From: an uncultured Actinomycetes bacterium
Lineage (GTDB): Bacteria > Actinomycetota > Thermoleophilia > Gaiellales > JAICJC01
Direction: 5' to 3'
Length of the DNA stretch: 64,000 nt
Assembly (NCBI GenBank): GCA_963709425.1
Contig: CAVPWG010000005.1
Span: 216,030 to 280,029, forward strand
Part shown: positions 3,413 through 54,856 of the stretch, piece by piece
How positions within the stretch are numbered: the stretch's first letter is position 1
How the letters are laid out: the number at the start of each line of letters is the position of its first letter
Translations under genes and position numbers: made by a program
The notes under the pieces: model-generated
Told to the model about the DNA's origin: nothing
The model's database searches: none
Seen by the model: the letters and a program-made list of their open reading frames with translations, nothing else

Positions 3413-3485
3413 GGGGCGTTAGCTCAGCTGGGAGAGCACCAGCTTTGCAAGCTGGGGGTCACCGGTTCGATCCCGGTACGCTCCA
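3413..3485 (+). tRNA. tRNA-Ala (anticodon UGC)
   Basis: 73-nt cloverleaf folded by hand: acceptor GGGGCGT/ACGCTCC with the G3:U70 Ala identity pair, D arm GCTC-AGCTGGGA-GAGC, anticodon arm CCAGC-TTTGCAA-GCTGG, variable GGGTC, T arm ACCGG-TTCGATC-CCGGT, discriminator A. CCA is not encoded. Confidence 0.95.
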
Positions 3486-3557
3486 CTCGCGTAATCCCTT
3501 TCTGGCAGCCGAACCTAGCGTTTCGGTGCGGCTTGGCGGAGCCGCACCGGAGCGAAC
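3439..3557. repeat. Left copy of 119/120-nt direct repeat (tRNA-Ala positions 27-73 plus 72 nt downstream); putative attL
   Basis: Aligns to 25196..25315 with 2 substitutions and one 1-nt indel (117 identical columns of 120). Covers the tRNA 3' part, a 29-nt spacer and the last ~13 codons plus stop of the integrase. Confidence 0.85.
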
Positions 3558-4640
3558 GGTGCGCACGGATTGCGCACACTCCGCCGAGCCTCTGCGACCG
3601 CGTCGACCATCCGCACGCCAGTCGCGAGCCGCTGCTCATCGAACATGTGCGAGTAGTGCGTCAGCGTCGTGACCGCGGTCGAGTGGCCCATCGACGCCGC
3701 GACGTAGGCGAGGGAGCGGCCCTCGTGGATGAGCAGCGAGGCGTAGGTGTGGCGAAGGTCGTATGGCGCAGCGTCGATGCCTGCGCTCGAGCAGGCAGGC
3801 CTCCAGACGCGGTTTCCGCCAGTTCCGAGGTCCAGGTACTCGCCGACCCCGCCGGCGACGACCAGAGCCCCTCGAGCGGGCTTCGAGGGCCTGAGCGCGG
3901 CCAGGTCGCCGTGGAGCGGCTCGACGATCTCGACCGTTCGCATCCGCCCGGTCTTCGTCCGGCGCAGCGCGCCGTACGACCAGCTCCGATCGACGACGAG
4001 GACGTGCTCGCCGACGCTGTCCCACGTCAACGCGAGGGCTTCGCCCGGCCGCAGGCCGGCGAGGGCGAGCAAGCTGACCAGACCTGGTCGCGCAGCACCG
4101 GCATGGCCGCCCGGATCTGCTCGACCTCAACCGGCGTCAACGCTCGCGGACGCTCCACGAGCACCGGCAGCTTCCGCACGCTCGAGCACGGGTTCGCCGG
4201 CAGATGCCCGTCGCGTACCGCGGCACCACACGCAGCCGAGAGGACGCTAAGCGCGCCGTTCGCGACCCCGGAGTCGCACCGCTCCCCGTGACTTCGGAGC
4301 GCCACTCACGGACGCGGCGGGACCCAGGTCGCGTAGCCGCACTCCCCGATCTGCGGCCGGACCCACCGGCTCAGAACGTCTTCGCGCTGCGACCGCGTTG
4401 ACGCCGCCCACAGCGGACTATCGGCCGCCCACCACACAGTCCAACCACTCGTCGAGCGTCTGCCGGCTCGGCACCGCGGCGGCGTGCACGCCGAGCTGCG
4501 GCCGTGCGGCGCTGCTCGAGCTCGAACGCGGTCGCGTCCTCTTTGCGGGTGAACGACTTGGCGTATTGGCGGTCGTCTCGGCGCCAGCGGACGACGTAGC
4601 TCCGGCCGCGCCGCCGGGTACCTTGCCGATGCGTCCACAC
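3515..4640 (-). pseudogene. Tyrosine recombinase / phage-type integrase, reading frame broken at 3 or more places
   Basis: Minus-strand pieces 4371..4640 (RGRSYVVRWRRDDRQYAKSFTRKEDATAFELE), 4027..4305 (LTPVEVEQIRAAMP) and 3515..4072 (GLRPGEALAL...LRHTYASLLIHEG...MGHSTAVTTLTHYSHMF) together read as one integrase with R..HxxR..Y catalytic residues. May be intact if the frame breaks are assembly indels. Confidence 0.8.
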
Positions 4641-25195: not shown

Positions 25196-25315
25196 CCAGC
25201 TTTGCAAGCTGGGGGTCACCGGTTCGATCCCGGTACGCTCCACTCGCGATAATCCCTTTCTGGCAACCGAACCTAGCGTTTCGGTGCGGCTTGGCGGAGC
25301 CGCACCGGAGCGGAC
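25196..25315. repeat. Right copy of the tRNA-Ala 3'-half direct repeat; putative attR
   Basis: Begins at the anticodon-stem CC and runs through the tRNA 3' end plus 73 nt. The 5' half of the tRNA is absent here. Confidence 0.85.
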
Positions 25316-42198: not shown

Positions 42199-42630
42199 CT
42201 ACGCTTCGATCACCGATTCGGCCGGACGAGCGGCGGTGATGGGATCGGCGTGGCGGTGCACCAGTTTCCAGTCTCCTCGCTCTGGGCGAAAGACGCTCGT
42301 GACCCGTACCGAGACCGAGCTGGCGTGGGAGCGTCCGCCGACTTTCGCTCGGTAGTGCTCTACCTCAACGAAGCAGGCAAGGTCGTCCGTCACGTGTTCG
42401 GAGATCCGCTCGTTCCGCGTCGCCTCGCCATCCCGGTAGTTAGCGGCCGCGCCCTGCAACGTGCCCAGGACGTTATCGTATCCGCGAGCGAAGGGCCCGA
42501 ACGGGTTCCCGAGCGTCACGTCATCCTGCCGGGAGTAGAGCGCGGCGTATCCCTCGCAGTCGCCGCGCACAATGCGGTGGCCCGCTTCGTGGTGCAGTTC
42601 GACCGCTTCGTCCAGCGACAGACCTGGCAT
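42199..42630 (-). CDS. SnoaL-like / NTF2-fold (DUF4440-like) protein
   Basis: 143 aa. Pattern ...YSRQDDVTLGNPFGP...GDWKLVHRHADP is typical of ketosteroid-isomerase-like folds. Confidence 0.65.
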   Translation of the reverse strand: MPGLSLDEAVELHHEAGHRIVRGDCEGYAALYSRQDDVTLGNPFGPFARGYDNVLGTLQGAAANYRDGEATRNERISEHVTDDLACFVEVEHYRAKVGGRSHASSVSVRVTSVFRPERGDWKLVHRHADPITAARPAESVIEA

Positions 42631-47915: not shown

Positions 47916-48813
47916 CTGATCGTGATCGTGATGCGCGTGACGCAGCTTGGATCGCAGCGATGAGCTCGTCCTTCGCCATTTTGGTGCGTCCCTCGATGCC
48001 GATGGTGGACGCCAGCTCCATGAGGTCCGACTTCCTGTACTCCTGAAGATCGCCGTTCGTCTCGACGTGGCCGCTGTCGGCGGCGGTCTGTCGGGCCGTC
48101 GCCTTCGACCGCCCGCGCAGCTGCTCGGCGCGACTCACCTGGGCTTCCGCCTGGCGGGCCTGCTGCTCGGCGTCTCGCGCCAACTGTTGCGCGCGACGTT
48201 GCGCCTCCTCGGCAGCGAGGTTCGCCGCCTCGGCGGCCTCCTCTGCCAACTGCCTTGCCTCCAGCATCGCCTCATGTGCCTCCTGGACGAGATTCTCGGC
48301 CCACTCTTTCGCCTCCTCGGCCTCGCCCTGAGCGCGATCGCTCTCCTCGTCGACCTCCTCGTACACGTCTTGCCGCTGCCGCTCAGCGTCCTCCTCTGCA
48401 GCGAGCCGCTCCTGCTTCACGAGTTCCTCGGCGTCTCGCTCGGCCTGCTTGATGCGTTGCTCCAGCTGCCGCTGAGTGTCGCGGTTGACCTCCTTGACGC
48501 GCGCCTGCCCGCGCTGGGCCACATCGACCGCATAGTCCGAACATTCCTTCGCCTCCTGCGCAGCCTCCGCCGCCCGCTCCTCAGCCTCGCGCGCCCGCTC
48601 GGCAGCATCCTCGGCGCGCTTCATCCGCAGCTGAATCGAATCCTCCCCCGACGGAACAGCATCCCTCACGGCCTCGCTGAATCGACGACCCTGATTGCGG
48701 GCCTTCGACACCGCGCCGGCCGACCGACTCGATCCCAACACTTGCGACACCGTCCACTCCGCGTTGGACGGCATATCACGAAGACCGCTACGGGCCCGTT
48801 CTAGCAGCGACAT
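47908..48813 (-). CDS. Coiled-coil protein with C-terminal Rho_N/SAP-like domain
   Basis: ATG 48813 (MSLLERARSG) after GAGGGAGG. About 180 aa of E/A/R/Q coiled coil; C-terminus YRKSDLMELASTIGIEGRTKMAKDELIAAI. Confidence 0.65.
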   Translation of the reverse strand: MSLLERARSGLRDMPSNAEWTVSQVLGSSRSAGAVSKARNQGRRFSEAVRDAVPSGEDSIQLRMKRAEDAAERAREAEERAAEAAQEAKECSDYAVDVAQRGQARVKEVNRDTQRQLEQRIKQAERDAEELVKQERLAAEEDAERQRQDVYEEVDEESDRAQGEAEEAKEWAENLVQEAHEAMLEARQLAEEAAEAANLAAEEAQRRAQQLARDAEQQARQAEAQVSRAEQLRGRSKATARQTAADSGHVETNGDLQEYRKSDLMELASTIGIEGRTKMAKDELIAAIQAASRASRSRSGA

Positions 48814-48926
48814 TTTTCGACCTCCCTCAGACGACGACAAGCCTGGTCATTGCCACGTCATGGGAGAAAACAAACCTGCGAGTCGTGCGCGCGCCTCGGC
48901 GAGGGCGTCTAGGTCTGCTCGCTCTT

Positions 48927-49318
48927 ATGTTGTTTCGAGACCACACCGGGACCACACGGGCACGCCATCTCCCGGCGTGTACGGCAGGTACAAACCGCGT
49001 AGTTGAGCCATAACGGCATGGTTGCGACGGTCCTGCCTTTCCTCGCCGAGAACCTCCGAGCCGACGACTTCACCGTCATCACGGCAGCGAGCGGCAACGA
49101 GGCCATCGACGTCCTCGCGGCGTCGCGCCCCGACGTCGTCCTGCTCGACGTCGTCCTCCCCGACATGAGCGGCTATGACGTCTGCCGCCGAGTCCGCCAG
49201 GGCGATGCCGTGGACGACCCGTGGGATCCCGATCTCCCGATCATCATGGTGTCGGCGAAAGCCGAGCACACGGACCGGGTCCGCGGTCTCAACCGAGGCG
49301 CCGACGACTTCGTCACGA
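48927..49318 (+). pseudogene. OmpR-family response regulator, 5' part (receiver domain up to ...GADDFVT)
   Basis: ...NRVVE / HNGMVATVLPFLAENL...PDVVLLDVVLPDMSGYDVC...PIIMVSAKAEHTDRVRGLNRGADDFVT, with a 1-nt frame break near 49008. Homology stops abruptly at 49318. Confidence 0.75.
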
Positions 49319-49455
49319 CGCACTCGGCCCACCCGGCCACGCGCATGGGCGGTCAGCCTGATCCGCCAGACCTGGCCTGTCAACCCTGCGCGGTATTGTG
49401 CCGGTGGGCCTGGGGGCTCGCGGTGGCGCCGGGCATCCAAGAGCAGGGAGGCCGC

Positions 49456-50013
49456 ATGGTTTCAGAGGCTCCGATGGAGGACGCGCCGGGCGGGAAGAGG
49501 CCCGCTGGCGAGGGGTGGTTCGTCGTCAACACGCGTGAGGCGCAGTGGATCCACAACGAGAGGTTCGGGGCCAACGTGACGTTCGAGGGCAGTCCCGGCC
49601 TCGCCATCGGCCCGCTCCTGTTCACGGAGCTCGGGATCAACATCCAGGTGCTATGGCCGGGGCAGCCGAACGGCTACTACCACGCTGAGGCAGGTCAGGA
49701 GGACTTCCTCGTGCTGCGGGGCGAGTGCCTGCTCCTGATCGAGGGCGAGGAGCGACGGCTCAAGGCGTGGGACTTCGTACACTGTCCGCCCTGGACAGAG
49801 CATGTCTTCGTTGCCACGAGTGACGGCCCGTGTGTGTACGTCGGCGTCGGCGCCCGCAACGTCGGTGAGGGCATCGTCTACCCCGTGTCCGAGCTGGCGC
49901 TGCGCCACGGGGTGGGCGTGACCGTGGAGGCGACCACCGGCGAGGTCGCCTACGCGGGGTCGCCCAAGACGGTTCCCGGCCCCTATCCCGAGGGAGTGCT
50001 CGCCAACAAGTAG
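49456..50013 (+). CDS. Cupin-domain protein
   Basis: ATG after AGGGAGG. GYYHAEAGQEDFLVLRGECLLLIEGEERRLKAWDFVHCPPWTEHVF is a cupin_2 pattern. Confidence 0.8.
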   Translation: MVSEAPMEDAPGGKRPAGEGWFVVNTREAQWIHNERFGANVTFEGSPGLAIGPLLFTELGINIQVLWPGQPNGYYHAEAGQEDFLVLRGECLLLIEGEERRLKAWDFVHCPPWTEHVFVATSDGPCVYVGVGARNVGEGIVYPVSELALRHGVGVTVEATTGEVAYAGSPKTVPGPYPEGVLANK

Positions 50014-50054
50014 AGGTTGGCCCGGCTGCGCGCCGCTGGCCCAGCCAACGACTC

Positions 50055-50080
50055 GGTGCCTGACTCTGCCGGTATCACGA
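50055..50080 (+). repeat. 26-bp module-end repeat, copy 1 (GGTGCCTGACTCTGCCGGTATCACGA)
   Basis: 25/26 identical to 50695..50720 and 23/26 to 51312..51337. Confidence 0.9.
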
Positions 50081-50189
50081 AGCCGTTCCTCGCTCCTGGC
50101 GCGGGTTCAGATCCAAAGCTAAGTGTGGTACGAGGTCGCGGCGCCATTGCGGCAGGGTTACGCAGGCTGGCAGCGCACTGAGGAGGGAC

Positions 50190-50678
50190 GTGACCGAGCC
50201 GAGACAGTTGATCAAGATTGCCGCTCTGGCCGACTATCCGCAGCTGGTGCCGGAGGTGGTCGCCATCGCCTGGGAGGAGTGGGGAGAGGCGCTGGCTGAA
50301 GACCCGCGCGAGCGCTGGCTGCGGGAGGCGGACCTCGACAGTCGCCTGCACGTGCCTACCTCAGCGGCGTTCGTGGCGGTGGCCGGTGATCGCGCGGTGG
50401 GCACAGTTCAGCTGCATGAGTTTGAGATCGACGCGATTCGCGACCGGTCGCCGTGGGTGTGTGGCATGGTCGTGCGGCCCGAGTACCGCAATGCCGGAGT
50501 GGGTCGGGGGCTACTGGCCGGGCTTGAGCGGTTCGCCGCAGAACACGGGGTGCCACGGCTGTGGGTGTTCACCGAACACGCGGCCGGGTTCTACGAGAGC
50601 TGCGGCTGGCAGCGGTATGGCGAGGCCGTCGAGGACGGGCAACCCGGCGTGGTGCTCACGCGCGAACTCTCGGTCTGA
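50190..50678 (+). CDS. GNAT-family N-acetyltransferase
   Basis: GTG after GAGGAGGG. MVVRPEYRNAGVGRGLLAGLERFAAEHG is the acetyl-CoA-binding motif A (R/Q-x-x-G-x-G/A). Confidence 0.85.
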   Translation: MTEPRQLIKIAALADYPQLVPEVVAIAWEEWGEALAEDPRERWLREADLDSRLHVPTSAAFVAVAGDRAVGTVQLHEFEIDAIRDRSPWVCGMVVRPEYRNAGVGRGLLAGLERFAAEHGVPRLWVFTEHAAGFYESCGWQRYGEAVEDGQPGVVLTRELSV

Positions 50679-50694
50679 ACGCGCGCCGGTTCGC

Positions 50695-50720
50695 GGTGCC
50701 TGACTCTGCCGGCATCACGA
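50695..50720 (+). repeat. 26-bp module-end repeat, copy 2 (GGTGCCTGACTCTGCCGGCATCACGA)
   Basis: Lies 17 nt after the GNAT stop. Followed by CGCTGTCC, like the left insertion junction (CGCACTCGG at 49319). Confidence 0.9.
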
Positions 50721-50822
50721 CGCTGTCCTAGACGCTGCGTTGGGTAGAGCGGTGCGTTCGTCGCGCAGGTGGTGGGGTACCGGTCAGTGGTCGCCCGCGG
50801 CAGAAGCGGTCGAAGGACTGAC

Positions 50823-51245
50823 TCAGCCGGCCTCGTGGAACCACGGGGCGTAGGAGATGCCGACGATCAGCCCCTCGGCGGAGAGCAGCCGGGCGACGGT
50901 CTGTCCCCATGGCTCCTCGCGGGGGTCGTGGACGAGTTCGAAGCCCGCGTGGCGGAGTTCGGCCGCCGCGCTCGCGACCGCCGCCGCATCGGCCACCTCG
51001 AACTCGACGGACGCCTGCGGAACGGTCATGTCCTTCGGCCACGCTGCCTCCCCGAAGCACGCCTGGGCCGCCTCGGCGAGCGGCCAGACGCCGAAGTGCC
51101 TGGCGCCGCCGATCCGCTCGCTGTGGAAGTAGTCGCTGCCCGGGCTCGCCTCGAGCGGCAGCCCGAGCGCGTCGACGTAGAGCCCGCGGCTTGTGGCCGG
51201 GTCGGGCGCAATGACGGCGAAGCTGGCGATGAACTCGATGTCCAT
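50823..51245 (-). CDS. VOC-family (glyoxalase/bleomycin-resistance/dioxygenase fold) protein
   Basis: 140 aa. ATG after GGAGGA. FAVIAPDPATSRGLYVDALGLPLE...FEVADAAAVASAAAELRHAGFELVHDPREEPWGQ is a typical VOC pattern. Confidence 0.8.
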   Translation of the reverse strand: MDIEFIASFAVIAPDPATSRGLYVDALGLPLEASPGSDYFHSERIGGARHFGVWPLAEAAQACFGEAAWPKDMTVPQASVEFEVADAAAVASAAAELRHAGFELVHDPREEPWGQTVARLLSAEGLIVGISYAPWFHEAG

Positions 51246-51311
51246 GGGATCCTCCGATCATGGTGCTCCATGCCTCCTAGAGACGGTAGCCGGTTGGCCG
51301 TCCGGATCGCC

Positions 51312-51337
51312 GGTGCCTGAGCCTGCCGATATCACGA
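51312..51337 (+). repeat. 26-bp module-end repeat, copy 3 (GGTGCCTGAGCCTGCCGATATCACGA)
   Basis: Abuts the resumption of the response-regulator reading frame (AGCCCTTCCAC = K)PFH). Confidence 0.9.
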
Positions 51338-51612
51338 AGCCCTTCCACTATCCCGAGCTCCTGGCCCGGATCGGAGCCGTGCTGAAGCGCGTAACCCGCG
51401 CACGCGACGCCCACCAGCTGTCCTATGGCGATCTGGCCGTCAACATCCTGTCGCGCGAGGTCACCGTGGCGGGCATGCGAGTCGAACTCTCGGCGAAGGA
51501 GTTCGCCCTGCTCGCGACCCTCGCGGGCGACCCCGACCGCGTCTTCACAAAACGCGAGCTGCTTCAGATGGTGTGGGATTTCCGAAGCCCCGGCAAGACA
51601 CGGACGGGTTAG
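51331..51612 (+). pseudogene. OmpR-family response regulator, 3' part (linker + winged helix), also 3'-truncated
   Basis: ITKPFHYPELLARIGAVLKRV...LSYGDLAVNILSREVTVAGMRVELSAKEFALLATLAGDPDRVFTKRELLQMVW, then a stop after ...GKTRTG. The usual RTVDxHxxRLRxKL...GxGY tail is missing. Confidence 0.75.
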
Positions 51613-51720
51613 GAGATAAGGGTGGTCGAAACCGGCCTCTCGGCGTTCGGATGGCTCGCGTATGTGGGCAAACGTGAGGTTCTGGCGAGTCAGCTGTCGA
51701 TCGGCGATCTGCGGACGGCT

Positions 51721-52026
51721 TTACCTACCGGACTGCAGTTCCCAGGCGCCGATGACGGCATCTTCGATGGCATCTGCATCTCCGTTCCCGAGGTCGGCGA
51801 CCACCATCATGTGCTTGACGTAGCGCCGTGGTACCGAGAACGTCTCAGGGAACGACTGGAGCAGGAAATCCCGGGAGTCGAACGACGCACGAATCACGAC
51901 GTGACTGTCGTCGAGTTGCCGGGCGACCAAGCGGCCACGATACCGCCAGTCGAGCAAGCCGTTCCGGCGTCGCTCGGTGACACGATCAAGCTGGGAGACC
52001 AAGCGGCTGAGTTCGACGAGCCGCAT
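51721..52026 (-). CDS. MmcQ/YjbR-family protein
   Basis: 101 aa from MRLVELSRLV. ...WRYRGRLVARQLDDSHVVIRASFDSRDFLLQSFPETF...HMMVVADLGNGDADAIEDAVIGAWELQ parallels the YjbR fold pattern. Confidence 0.55.
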   Translation of the reverse strand: MRLVELSRLVSQLDRVTERRRNGLLDWRYRGRLVARQLDDSHVVIRASFDSRDFLLQSFPETFSVPRRYVKHMMVVADLGNGDADAIEDAVIGAWELQSGR

Positions 52027-52483
52027 CAGGTCATGTTCGCACGTTCCTCCACCATCCGGGCGGTGCGCCCGCCACGACGGCATACCCCTCCTCGACGCAG
52101 CCCAGCGGCGCGCCCCGGCCCGACCGTGACCCTGCCCATCTAGCACGATTAGGCGACGCTTGGAAGGCCGCTCAAGCCCCGGCCCACACCCGACGATGCC
52201 CCACTCACCGGTAGACCCTGAGAAGCCCACCGGAGCGGGCCTGAGAAACCCGACTTGCACGAGCCGCAGCGGCCCCACGGGACCGCTGCGGCTCGCGCAC
52301 CCGCACCGTCGCCGCCGACCCGGAAGGTGCCTCCCCCTCGACCCCCGCGTGGACCCGAAGCAGGCTCCGACTCGGGGTGTGCGAGCCCCTGGAATACCGC
52401 GTCGCCGCGTAGGCTGTGTTGTTCGGCGAAACGAGCGGGCGGGGTAACAGGGAGACGAACCGCACCTCAGACTGGAGGCAGAG

Positions 52484-53230
52484 ATGGCGGAGCACACGAT
52501 CGGCACGCAGGAGGAGTGGCAGGCGGAGCGCGACGAGGTGCTGAAGGAGGAGAAGGAGCTCACGCGCCGGAGTGACGAGTTAGCCGCGAAGCGGCGACGC
52601 CTGCCGTGGGTCCCGGTCGAGAAGGATTACCGGTTCGAGACCGAGCAGGGCGAAAAGAGCCTCGCCGACCTCTTCGATGGCCGAAGCCAGCTCATGGTCT
52701 ACCACTTCATGTTCGGGCCGTCCTACCAGGCGGGATGCCCGGCGTGCTCCTCGATCGCGGACACTCTCGCCCCACAGGTGCCGCACCTCCAGGCGAGGGA
52801 CACCACACTGCTGCTCGCGTCACGAGGGCCGCTCGCGAAGCTGATCGCCTACGGCGACCGGATGGGCTGGGACATCGACTGGGTCTCGAGCGGCGGCAGC
52901 GAGTTCAACCGCGACCTCGGCTTCGCCCACACGGAGGATGAGCTGAAGCCATTTCTCGAGGGCGAGATCGCGGCCACCATCGTCCAGAACGCGGAGATGT
53001 GCGGAACGAGCCCCGGCGGCTACGTGGCGGAGGGGCCGGGCCTGAGCGTGTACACGCTCGCGGACGGGCTCGTCTACCGCACGTATGTCAGCACCGCACG
53101 CGGCCTCGAGCCTGCGATGGCCTACTACGCCCTGCTCGACCGCACGCCAAAGGGTCGCGACGAGACCGGCACCAAGCCCCATTGGCTGCGCCGCCACGAC
53201 GAGTACGAGTCGAGCATGCCGGCGGTGTGA
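52484..53230 (+). CDS. DUF899 thioredoxin-like protein
   Basis: EEWQAERDEVLKEEKELTRRSDELAAKRRRLPWVPVEKDYRFE...LFDGRSQLMVYHFMFGPSYQAGCPACS...RMGWDIDWVSS. Confidence 0.85.
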   Translation: MAEHTIGTQEEWQAERDEVLKEEKELTRRSDELAAKRRRLPWVPVEKDYRFETEQGEKSLADLFDGRSQLMVYHFMFGPSYQAGCPACSSIADTLAPQVPHLQARDTTLLLASRGPLAKLIAYGDRMGWDIDWVSSGGSEFNRDLGFAHTEDELKPFLEGEIAATIVQNAEMCGTSPGGYVAEGPGLSVYTLADGLVYRTYVSTARGLEPAMAYYALLDRTPKGRDETGTKPHWLRRHDEYESSMPAV

Positions 53231-53243
53231 GCCGCCGGTACCC

Positions 53244-53990
53244 TCACCCGCCCATGTTCATCTGCATCGAGGGCGAGCCGGTGGGGTCGGTCAGCCCAGG
53301 CACGGTCGCCGGCGAGACGGCGACCCACACTCCGAGGGCGATGAGCGCCACTGCGACAACGGGCGCGAGCCGCGGGCCCGTTGGCAGAACCTTCTCGGCG
53401 AAGATCACGACGGTCGCGACGGCCATCCACAGCAGGCTCATCACGCCCAGCACGAAGAGCACCGCCATCAGCGCCCCGGAACAGCCGACGCAGTCGCGGC
53501 CGTGCGCGATGCCGCTCCGGAACGCGCCCCCAGGCGGAGCGCTGCGACAGCGGCGCAGGCTCACCCGCTTGACCGGCGTCAGCTCATAGAGGCCCGCAGC
53601 GACGATCACGCCGCCCGCCACATACGGGCCGGACCGATCCCAGGCCAACAGGCCGATGTCGAGCGAGCCCACGAACCGGTAGGCGGCGTAGGCCAGGATG
53701 CCGTAGACCGTCCAGACGGCCAGATACCCGGCCGCGAAGAGCAGCGTCGGAACCTGAGAGGCGCGCCGCGCGACGTGTCGTGCCGCCGGCGCCGCCGTGG
53801 GCAGCATCATCGCCGCGGTCATCGTGACCCAGACGCCGAGGTACCAGCCGAGCCCGCCGAGGTCCGTGCCCGGGCCGTCGTCCATGCCGCGCATCCGATC
53901 GATCGTGACCGCCCACGCGGCGAGCGCTCCGGCGACGAGCGCGAGCGTCGTCCGGTTCCGGGGCGTGAGGCGCTCCGTCATCCAGGTCAT
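53244..53990 (-). CDS. DUF2182 predicted metal-binding membrane protein
   Basis: From MTWMTERL. WYLGVWVTMTAAMMLPTAAPA and C-terminal CVGCSGALMAVLFVLGVMSLLWM are characteristic. Confidence 0.7.
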   Translation of the reverse strand: MTWMTERLTPRNRTTLALVAGALAAWAVTIDRMRGMDDGPGTDLGGLGWYLGVWVTMTAAMMLPTAAPAARHVARRASQVPTLLFAAGYLAVWTVYGILAYAAYRFVGSLDIGLLAWDRSGPYVAGGVIVAAGLYELTPVKRVSLRRCRSAPPGGAFRSGIAHGRDCVGCSGALMAVLFVLGVMSLLWMAVATVVIFAEKVLPTGPRLAPVVAVALIALGVWVAVSPATVPGLTDPTGSPSMQMNMGG

Positions 53991-54117
53991 CCTGCTCTCC
54001 TTCCCGCGTTGCTCGCTCTCTAGACCTGCCGGAGCGCGAAAACTCATCGCCGATGAGTTTTCGGGGTATCACCGGTCTCATCTGGTACTCCGGTAGTCCA
54101 CGAGGAGGGGATCTGAG

Positions 54118-54856
54118 ATGTCGGAGCACACGAATCGGAACTCGCGAGGAATGGCAGGCGGCCCGGGACGAGCTCGCGAAGCTTGAGGCCGATCAGGCAG
54201 TGCGGAACGAGGAGGTCAAGCGGAAGCGGCTCGAGCTTCCCTGGGTGCCGGTCGAGAAGGAGTACGAGTTCGACACCGACGACGGCAAGAGGACGCTGGC
54301 CGACCTCTTCGACGGGCGCTCGCAGCTGCTCGCCTACAACGTCATGTTCGGCCCCGACTACACGCTCGGCGCCTGCCCGGGCTGTACCAGCCTGGCCGAC
54401 GGGCTCGAGGGGTCGCTCGTCCACCTGAACCACCGCGACGTGACCCTGATCTGCTTCTCGCGGGCGCCGATCGAACGGCTGACCGCCTACAAGCGGCGCA
54501 TGGGGTGGGAGTTCCCGTACGTGTCTACCTACGACACCGACTTCGCATTCGACTTCGGCCTCGCGCTCACCGACGAACAGGCACAGGCCGTCCCCGAGAT
54601 CACACAGATGGTCGAGAACCCGCCCGAGTGGCTCGAGGAGTGGTCAGGCCAGATCGGGGCCGAGCTGAAGGACGGGCTGCGCGAGAACCCCAGCTGGATC
54701 GCCTTCGCACGCGAGAACGGCACCGTCTACCACACCTACACGGTCTCGGCGCCCGACCCGTTCGTCGCGCCGTACTTCATGTTCCTGGAGGAGCGGATGC
54801 CGAAGCCGGGACCGGACGAGCCGCGGATGTGGCGGAAGGACGAATACCCGGATTGA
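54118..54856 (+). pseudogene. DUF899 thioredoxin-like protein (paralogue), 1-nt frame break after codon 5
   Basis: ATG 54118 after GAGGAGGGG reads MSEHT. The body (IGTREEWQAARDELAKLEA...LPWVPVEKEYEFD...LFDGRSQLLAYNVMFGP...CPGCT) is in the next frame; removing one A from ACGAATCGG joins them. Confidence 0.8.

Follow-up and report, generated by a model that had tools for sequence, protein, structure and literature searches.

A response-regulator gene interrupted by probable mobile gene cassettes whose ~42-bp site recurs among uncultured soil Actinomycetota

We analyzed a 64,000-nucleotide stretch of DNA from an uncultured Actinomycetes bacterium (Actinomycetota; Thermoleophilia; Gaiellales; assembly GCA_963709425.1, contig CAVPWG010000005.1, positions 216,030 to 280,029), hereafter the window, whose first nucleotide is position 1. 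In the window, an OmpR-type response-regulator (RR) gene is split into two parts separated by 2,019 bp (49319..51337) that carry genes for a cupin, a GNAT and a VOC/glyoxalase protein, in three modules that each end in the same 26-nt sequence. This insert is likely an array of three mobile gene cassettes that belong to an integron-like, site-specific system that is mobilized in trans and widespread in uncultured soil Actinomycetota. Other loci and proteins are cited below by L and P numbers.

The RR open reading frame (ORF) reaches GADDFVT (RGLNRGADDFVT) at 49318 and continues as KPFHYPELL (KPFHYPELLARIGAVLKR) from 51338. Both junctions are base-precise and in frame, and the joined halves matched Pfam Response_reg (1.3e-23) and Trans_reg_C (1.6e-08). 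The left part (49039..49318, + strand; the receiver, approximately codons 18-107) matched Response_reg, is 96-97.5% identical to the intact genes of L065 and L066, and ends in GGCGCCGACGACTTCGTCACGA, which constitutes the left arm of the target. The right part (51338..51606, + strand) comprises the end of the receiver, the linker, and the first half of the winged helix (Trans_reg_C positions 3-45 of 77), and stops after KTRT; it is 98% identical to the genes in L065 and L066 and 99.3% identical to those in L067 and L068.

The insert is modular. Copies of the 26-mer GGTGCCTGACTCTGCCGGTATCACGA start at 50055, 50695, and 51312, always on the + strand and with 0, 1, and 3 mismatches, respectively; these are its only matches in the 64-kb window, where none were expected (100 shuffles), and they are spaced by 640 and 617 bp. 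Cassette 1 (49319..50080, +; 762 bp) consists of the cupin gene (49456-50013, +; Cupin_2, 1.2e-11) and the 26-mer at 50055-50080. Cassette 2 (50081..50720, +; 640 bp) consists of the GNAT gene (50190-50678, +; Acetyltransf_1, 5.9e-15) and the 26-mer at 50695-50720, and cassette 3 (50721..51337, +; 617 bp) consists of the VOC/glyoxalase gene (50823-51245, -; Glyoxalase, 3.9e-05) and the 26-mer at 51312-51337. All three genes are preceded by a GGAGG-type Shine-Dalgarno sequence. The junctions read TCACGA|CGC at 49319 and 50721 and TCACGA|AGCC at 50081 and 51338, and the first 26-mer is followed by a shortened stretch that resembles the right side of the RR target (50081-50115). A first-pass annotation of the window had described the three-gene insert, its coordinates, junction patterns, Shine-Dalgarno sequences, repeats and their spacing, as well as this shortened second copy of the right flank, and all of these hold in the sequence.

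That the RR gene has been interrupted, as the first-pass annotation had proposed, was confirmed by comparison with uninterrupted relatives. Nucleotide alignment (blastn) mapped window positions 49039-49324 and 51332-51606 onto one continuous, intact RR gene at 96-98% identity in both L065 and L066, where the native context is the RR gene, then a histidine kinase, and then tad-type pilus genes. A protein search with the joined RR returned thousands of relatives, the best of which (P0002 and P0003; 235 aa, 97% identity) have an unbroken GADDYVTKPF. In addition, two short contigs from different samples (L067 and L068) carry uninterrupted GADDYVT-KPF codons that adjoin a downstream flank 99.3% identical to that of the window. 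Uninterrupted orthologues, which the first-pass annotation had anticipated, therefore exist, and the insertion into a real RR gene is not an impression created by alignment.

The RR copy in the window has further breaks, near codon 17 (49038|49039) and after KTRT (51606|51607), and is therefore a gene remnant in a rearranged locus. In place of its first ~17 codons and promoter is unrelated sequence, which L036 shares at ~77% identity. After KTRT the reading frame ends with a glycine codon and a stop; the same variant, free of cassettes, is P0001 (201 aa) in L067 and L068. The histidine kinase and tad genes that neighbor the native gene in L065 are absent downstream of the window RR.

The site is not confined to the window. 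A scan of one genome per species returned 14 loci, 10 of which were judged convincing, and all of these were in metagenome-assembled genomes (MAGs) of uncultured soil Actinomycetota (Gaiellales, Thermoleophilia, and 'Actinomycetes'). Matches in Gemmataceae, Alphaproteobacteria, Nocardia, and Pseudarthrobacter (L007, L009, L010, and L011) were rejected as true sites and treated as chance matches because the GG prefix and the right arm of the site described below were missing. A scan of metagenomes located the site on 48 soil and rhizosphere contigs, and a profile of the site found additional, more diverged copies in loci that had already been identified, such that 98 site instances with 73 distinct combinations of left and right flanks were available. 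The first-pass annotation had suggested looking for the site beyond the window, and the ~10 MAGs and 48 contigs on which it was found indeed show it flanking different single genes. All sites of any one locus lie on one strand, in direct orientation, and the largest arrays have five sites (L003, L013, and L070). Arrays are not limited to the RR gene, and most are outside of it (L001, L003, L004, L012, and L070); that of L003, for example, is located between DUF1028 and Mrp genes, and that of L004 is beside bipA. No match was found among 72,556 plasmids in PLSDB, only chance-level matches (E = 0.7), inside helicase genes, were found among GenBank phages, and the two matches among viral contigs were both weak.

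Intervals between sites range from 41 to 1162 bp, are mostly 545-640 bp, and usually contain one small gene. The encoded proteins include VOC/glyoxalase (several families), cupin, GNAT, NTF2-like, SRPBCC/AHSA1, DUF3237, methyltransferase, P-loop kinase, ACT, YCII, and small membrane proteins. The gene is opposite in strand to the site in 14 cassette families and on the same strand in 7; since two thirds of the families thus carry their gene opposite to the site, cassettes cannot rely on a common promoter. Examples of opposite-strand genes are at 4384-4932 of L070 and in those that encode P0121-P0123 and P0128.

Cassettes with the same ends were found beside different neighbors, which supports the cassette-type reading offered in the first-pass annotation. 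In L036, the RR left half (...GACTACGTAACGA) is followed by GGCACGTTCGGG, a methyltransferase gene, and a 26-mer that adjoins AGCCGTTTCAC, the RR right half; here GGCACGTTCGGGCTTC directly abuts the RR left half ...GACTACGTAACGA. The left end of this methyltransferase cassette, GGCACGTTCGGGCTCC, follows the RR left half in L036 and a 26-mer in L001, L013, and L042, where that 26-mer belongs to a different upstream cassette. Two to three other cassettes occupy the same RR position in L006, and an RR right half follows a site in L025, L034, L038, and L045. For the ACT cassette, at least five different neighbors occur on the right and three on the left. A 545-bp VOC cassette is highly similar in L001, L003, L018, and L061, where the upstream sequences differ and the similarity begins exactly at the junction. 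The GNAT-to-VOC junction of the window is also present in L008, and the window VOC cassette has other neighbors in L024 and L045. In the GNAT cassette of L008, GGCA replaces the first 22 nt of window cassette 2. The RR-right-like stretch after the first 26-mer (50081 to ~50115, +) is a variable left end of the GNAT cassette. Other cassettes that start with RR-right-like pieces (35-100 nt) are in L013 (two cases), L038, and L075.

Several further features of the cassettes were observed. Closely spaced pairs of sites form 'empty' cassettes in L024 (1343-1409), L003 (3090-3198), and L057 (216-349), with spacings of 41, 83, and 108 nt, respectively; the 41-nt unit of L024 amounts to one full 42-bp site and is too small for a double-stranded circle. 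Read in reverse, the 26-mer gives GTG ATA CCG GCA GAG TCA GGC ACC, and because of this reading ORF calls for opposite-strand cassette genes in the loci analyzed here often start inside the site, with false N-terminal extensions of the type M/V-IPAESGT. Public models of ACT proteins with 190-210 aa, as compared to 123-126 aa, may reflect the same artefact, and two of the extended models (P0131 and P0181) come from loci without any site.

Alignment of the site instances revealed that the 26-mer, which had been described as a 26-bp site, is conserved but is only part of a site of ~42 bp. This full site comprises a 26-nt left arm and core, GGTGCCTGACTCTGCCGGTATCAC(G/C)A, and a weak right arm, nGCnG-N9-CC, that opens the next cassette. 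Among 63 non-redundant flanks, the conserved positions of the right arm are +2 (G in 58), +3 (C in 48), +5 (G in 47), +15 (C in 56), and +16 (C in 49), with p-values from 1e-9 to 1e-22. Nothing is conserved upstream of the 26-mer in the aligned instances. Each conserved right-arm position complements its mirror position in the left arm, with the center of symmetry between -6 and -5 (T|C of GGTATCAC), and the site is thus an imperfect palindrome of ~42 bp whose left half is strong and whose right half is weak.

Four such sites or site-like junctions are in the window, all on the + strand. The left, attL-like junction (49297..49334) joins the RR left arm and TCACGA to the right arm of cassette 1, CGCACTCGGCCCACCC, which matches the nGC...CC consensus. 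Full site 1 (50055..50096) joins the 26-mer GGTGCCTGACTCTGCCGGTATCACGA to the right arm AGCCGTTCCTCGCTCC, and full site 2 (50695..50736), a cassette-cassette junction, has the right arm CGCTGTCCTAGACGCT. Full site 3, which is attR-like (51312..51353), consists of the 26-mer GGTGCCTGAGCCTGCCGATATCACGA and the RR's own right flank, AGCCCTTCCACTATCC, which also matches the right-arm consensus. Folding of the site, a possibility raised in the first-pass annotation, was not borne out on either strand: both strands of the 26-mer gave a minimum free energy of 0 kcal/mol, the 26-mer is not self-complementary, and 71-nt segments around the three window sites did not fold better than shuffled sequence (z-scores of +0.8 to +1.45).

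The RR junctions place the crossover between -7 and +1. Within this interval the base at -2 is variable (G in 39 and C in 29 of 70 unique sites), and it tracks the right-hand cassette in 8 of 8 comparisons (baseline 46%), whereas positions -17 and -16 of the left arm track the left-hand cassette. In one left-hand cassette, the base at -2 is C or G according to the partner. Recombination at a TCACGA core had been proposed in the first-pass annotation; the core is indeed shared, but because the -2 base goes with the right-hand cassette, exchange probably occurs inside TCAC, at the dyad center, rather than after TCACGA.

The left arms of two targets can also be compared. At the first junction of two arrays that are not in the RR gene (L001 1360-1400 and L003 2528-2568), the left arm is CAGGATCGTGGRACCRYKTGACCA; it has AGG, GAC, A, GT, and ACCA in common with the RR left arm, at equal distances from the core. 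In both of these target types (RR and L001/L003) the GG is 4 nt nearer the core than in the 26-mer. These shared features may represent a consensus for the left arm of landing sites. The terminal inverted repeat of Tn3-family transposons, whose outer end we take to resemble the first 13 nt of the 26-mer, was considered and dismissed, given that the sites are single and direct with no partner inverted repeat.

These patterns would be accounted for if a cassette consists of one small gene, on either strand, and one ~42-bp site. In a linear array the site is split, such that the left arm and core end one cassette and the right arm starts the next, and excision would yield a circle in which a single site is whole. 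Strand exchange would take place within the core and be carried out by a recombinase whose gene is elsewhere in the genome; one partner would be a cassette site, and the other either a second cassette site or a look-alike chromosomal sequence. The GADDY(V/I)T|KPFHYP codons of this RR are probably such a look-alike and a recurrent landing site, and the cassette site may itself derive from the RR coding sequence, as its appearance suggests. Arrays would grow, shrink, and reshuffle in the manner of integron arrays.

The palindromic site with its central crossover, uniform polarity, precise units, and look-alike landing site fit a dimeric enzyme that acts on double-stranded DNA and gives circular cassette intermediates. 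We tentatively favor a tyrosine recombinase acting on double-stranded DNA, at somewhat less than even probability, because any pair of sites seems to be recombinable, the site resembles its target gene as an attP would, and L045 and L059 have tyrosine-integrase fragments beside sites. A less probable candidate, a large serine recombinase, is suggested by the 21-bp half-sites and by the position of the GG, 4 nt closer to the core, in two target left arms. The att sites of large serine recombinases are imperfect palindromes of 40-50 bp with the crossover at a central dinucleotide, and their attB half-sites are shorter than their attP half-sites. The present site is a 42-bp imperfect palindrome, centered on T|C, with a probable crossover near its center; the RR right arm has the spacing of cassette right arms.

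Genes for such an enzyme were sought around the arrays. No intact integrase was found within 4-10 kb of the arrays in L001-L014 or L070, Pfam searches of the larger ORFs of the window and of related loci returned no relevant recombinase, no serine recombinase gene was seen, and no locus showed an HUH nuclease gene. Among the contexts of homologues of the ACT gene, L070 has arrays that lack a recombinase, and the gene is outside of any array in L069, L071, and L072. Because no array has an intact recombinase nearby, the enzyme probably acts in trans. The fragments in L045 (229-534) and L059 (640-1296) are C-terminal Phage_integrase pieces, the former on the same strand as, and directly after, an RR-right fragment. 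A JAB-like ORF that adjoins integrase fragments in L024, L047, and L059 was followed as a lead, and its homology search led nowhere.

The first-pass annotation had pointed to a distant, frame-broken integrase as the only recombinase in the window. This is the sole recombinase gene recognized there (a tyrosine integrase at 3515-4305, -, ~45 kb from the RR locus), but it belongs to another element. It is at the tRNA end of a 21.8-kb island (3413-25243) at a tRNA-Ala(TGC) gene (3413-3486), bounded by an exact 48-nt direct repeat that corresponds to the last 48 nt of the tRNA (3439-3486 and 25196-25243). The island excludes the RR locus and is unrelated to the cassette array. Its cargo includes a STAND/TPR NTPase, a BTAD regulator, an adenylate cyclase fused to AAA_16, and DUF2252.

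Several observations weigh against a working, trans-mobilized cassette system. No intact recombinase gene was found beside any array, either in the window or in the 8-20 kb around ~15 other arrays, and no circular junction or excision product was seen in the assembled contigs. Many arrays look decayed, with degenerate or truncated sites and RR pseudogenes, and the system could be largely fossil. The apparent conservation of the 26-mer is inflated by ascertainment, since the scans of the collections demanded 20-21 fixed bases; conservation of the right arm is free of this effect because its positions were not in the search patterns. A 12-nt sequence, CGCGGGACCGCA, is present on both sides of the 26-mer in L004 (1483-1553), between a YCII gene and an ACT cassette, and neither this duplication nor the 41-nt unit of L024 is explained by simple reciprocal recombination. 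Lastly, L067 and L068 are short and of low coverage with a mosaic pattern of single-nucleotide polymorphisms (SNPs), and could be chimeras of a native RR and a window-type locus; on account of this pattern we treat them as supportive rather than decisive, and the evidence from intact orthologues is independent of them. The CGCGGGACCGCA duplication around the 26-mer was also observed in L048, L049, and L051.

We considered whether the arrays might instead be decayed tandem insertions, or integrase-less satellites, of an integrative element whose tyrosine integrase targets the RR gene and whose attP copies part of it. The 26-mer would then be the att repeat between successive insertions, like that of islands stacked at tRNA genes. 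This account is possible, although we regard it as rather unlikely, and it overlaps with trans-mobilized cassettes, from which it differs mainly in the autonomy and activity ascribed to the small modules. The resemblance of the site to the RR at both ends (GGTGCC...ATCACGAAGCCGTTCC versus GGCGCC...GTCACGAAGCCCTTCC) favors it, as do the RR-right-like pieces at the start of several cassettes (in the window, L013, L038, and L075) and the Phage_integrase fragments near sites in L045 and L059. However, those fragments are from 2 of ~60 loci and share only 43-47% identity with each other, and most arrays are not in the RR gene. Moreover, the units are tiny (545-640 bp, one gene), occur in many permutations, and have precise ends in genomes of different orders, which would not be expected from passive decay of kilobase-sized islands. 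Single-stranded movement by an HUH-type nuclease, as in IS91, ISCR, Helitrons, and rolling-circle replication, would entail a nick after TCAC(G/C)A, peeling to the next site, and rejoining. It would suit the asymmetry of conservation (26 nt on the left side of the junction as against only five positions on the right side), the uniform orientation of sites within arrays, the RR fragments carried by some cassettes, as one-ended rolling-circle transposition would give, and the 41-108-nt units, which are easier to picture as single-stranded circles. Yet no HUH gene was seen in any locus and there is no hairpin at the site, which separates it from IS200/IS605, IS91/ISCR, and Helitron-like elements, and left ends are conserved only at the five mirrored positions. 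These mirror the left arm about -6|-5, the signature of a dimer on double-stranded DNA, and the behavior of the -2 base places the exchange inside TCAC, such that we consider this mode of movement improbable.

Two other explanations carry still less weight. A repetitive extragenic palindromic (REP) or miniature inverted-repeat transposable element (MITE)-like intergenic repeat, with modules shuffled by homologous or illegitimate recombination and the RR insertion a one-off accident, might be suspected from the position of the repeats between genes, the degenerate or truncated state of some copies, and the lack of a known enzyme. It is largely refuted and very unlikely. The first-pass annotation had named a genome-wide repeat of this kind as an outcome that would overturn its reading; the 26-mer is not such a repeat, with all three copies in 64 kb confined to the insert, and it lacks self-complementarity, terminal inverted repeats, and a consistent target-site duplication, and its orientation within arrays is strictly uniform. 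Further, the RR left junction lacks the 26-mer and has only ~6 nt in common with the site, yet falls at the same nucleotide in the window and in L036, two independent genomes that carry different cargo, and a conserved right arm on unrelated cassettes would be unexpected for an inserting 26-nt repeat. The last explanation, that the interrupted RR is an assembly artefact on a chimeric MAG contig, is prompted by a source that is probably metagenome-assembled, by RR paralogues and repeats, which are classic causes of mis-joins, and by the mosaic SNPs of L067 and L068. It can be considered extremely unlikely, since independently assembled sequences, which come from different projects and assemblers (Joint Genome Institute soil contigs L025, L034, L036, and L045, and MAG L006), share this architecture and have other cassettes at the same break in the RR, and both window junctions are base-precise and in frame.

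Trans-mobilized cassettes of this kind resemble integron cassettes in many respects. In both systems single-gene cassettes of ~0.5-1 kb with one site at one end form uniform arrays and are shuffled between them, the cargo consists of small accessory enzymes, and the few bases that follow the crossover are part of the next cassette. The RR codons, which are not part of a cassette, provide a distinct landing sequence where an array begins and in this are functionally like attI. However, the site described here is 42 bp, conserved in sequence, and unfolded, whereas attC sites are 57-141 bp, conserved in structure, and form hairpins (R''-L''/L'-R'); its core is TCAC(G/C)A rather than GTTRRRY; no intI gene is next to any array examined here; and the genes point in either direction, whereas integron cassette genes are mostly promoterless and co-oriented. 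The hosts, too, are Thermoleophilia-type Actinomycetota. Membership in the integrons was therefore rejected on the absence of IntI, attC-type hairpins, the GTTRRRY core, and co-orientation.

The dif (pdif) modules of Acinetobacter plasmids, presumably mobilized by the XerC/XerD of the host, are also small, have short sites (28 bp) with one well conserved and one degenerate half, lack an internal recombinase, and are shuffled between replicons. Their sites resemble the chromosomal dif site of the host and alternate in inverted orientation (XerC-XerD / XerD-XerC) with an 11-6-11 layout, in contrast to the direct 42-bp sites described here, and the present arrays are chromosomal, with no plasmid match in PLSDB; on orientation and carriage, the cassettes were not assigned to the dif modules. 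What we take to be the general dif consensus (ATAA/TTAT arms) does not evidently resemble the site described here. The first-pass annotation had considered the site unrelated to those of integrons and dif modules. Tandem integrase-less islands, such as composites of staphylococcal cassette chromosome (SCC) at rlmH and tycheposon satellites at tRNA genes, likewise occupy a specific place in a conserved gene, are divided into units by target-like direct att repeats, and are mobilized by a recombinase encoded elsewhere. Those islands span from kilobases to tens of kilobases, contain many genes, and usually preserve the target gene, whereas the units here are ~0.6 kb with a single gene and the RR frame is destroyed. 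The sfx sites of shufflons offer a parallel for a site with one highly conserved arm, one nearly free arm, and a short crossover region, an arrangement that fixes polarity; their tyrosine recombinase Rci, however, inverts plasmid segments between inverted sites, whereas direct repeats here delimit excisable cassettes.

No described element with this site was found in the literature, among PLSDB plasmids, or among GenBank phages, consistent with the first-pass annotation. The site sequence was not found in any paper, where the few matches were GFP11 primers, and no description of cassettes in these taxa was found. Because a review lists Actinobacteriota among the phyla with integrons, we argue for a different cassette system rather than for the first cassettes in the phylum.

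Some genes in and around the arrays deserve mention in their own right. A SnoaL_3/DUF4440 gene in the window (42199-42630, -), homologous to cassette genes in L012 and L026, has no nearby site, and L069 encodes an ACT protein that is 94% identical to a cassette-borne one, also without a site; cargo genes thus exist as ordinary chromosomal genes as well. Genes of non-homologous end joining are within a few kb of some arrays (a LigD primase-polymerase domain at 3105-4109 of L056 and fragments of ATP-dependent ligase at the contig ends of L018 and L027), which may be coincidence or reflect one shared chromosomal location. Directly after the RR breakpoint, the window has an unannotated 106-aa ORF (51721-52041, -), for which a guess of YjbR-like was dropped when Pfam gave no match, and further downstream two DUF899 paralogues (52484-53230, +, and 54053-54856, +) flank a gene for a 267-aa membrane protein (53244-54047, -). 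Rfam detected no RNA family within 48500-52500.

Integrons are the textbook machine for the capture of gene cassettes, and dif modules are a second, narrower case. Site-specific arrays of gene cassettes are already known as a kind, and there is a substantial chance that the enzyme will make the present system categorically new. We consider it somewhat more probable than the converse that these arrays represent an independent, integron-parallel system of cassette capture, with a 42-bp, double-stranded, RR-derived palindromic site and a trans-acting recombinase unrelated to IntI. If so, a third, sequence-unrelated system in abundant uncultured soil Actinomycetota would show that cassette capture evolved more than once, and its arrays would make a further set of mobile accessory genes accessible. 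Among the members of the families to which the cargo belongs (VOC/glyoxalase, GNAT, cupin, methyltransferase, and kinase) are enzymes that modify antibiotics and xenobiotics. The short double-stranded site could serve as a recombination tool once the enzyme is found, and the 26-mer could be used as a polymerase chain reaction primer or search key for cassettes in soil DNA, as attC-targeted primers are used for integrons.

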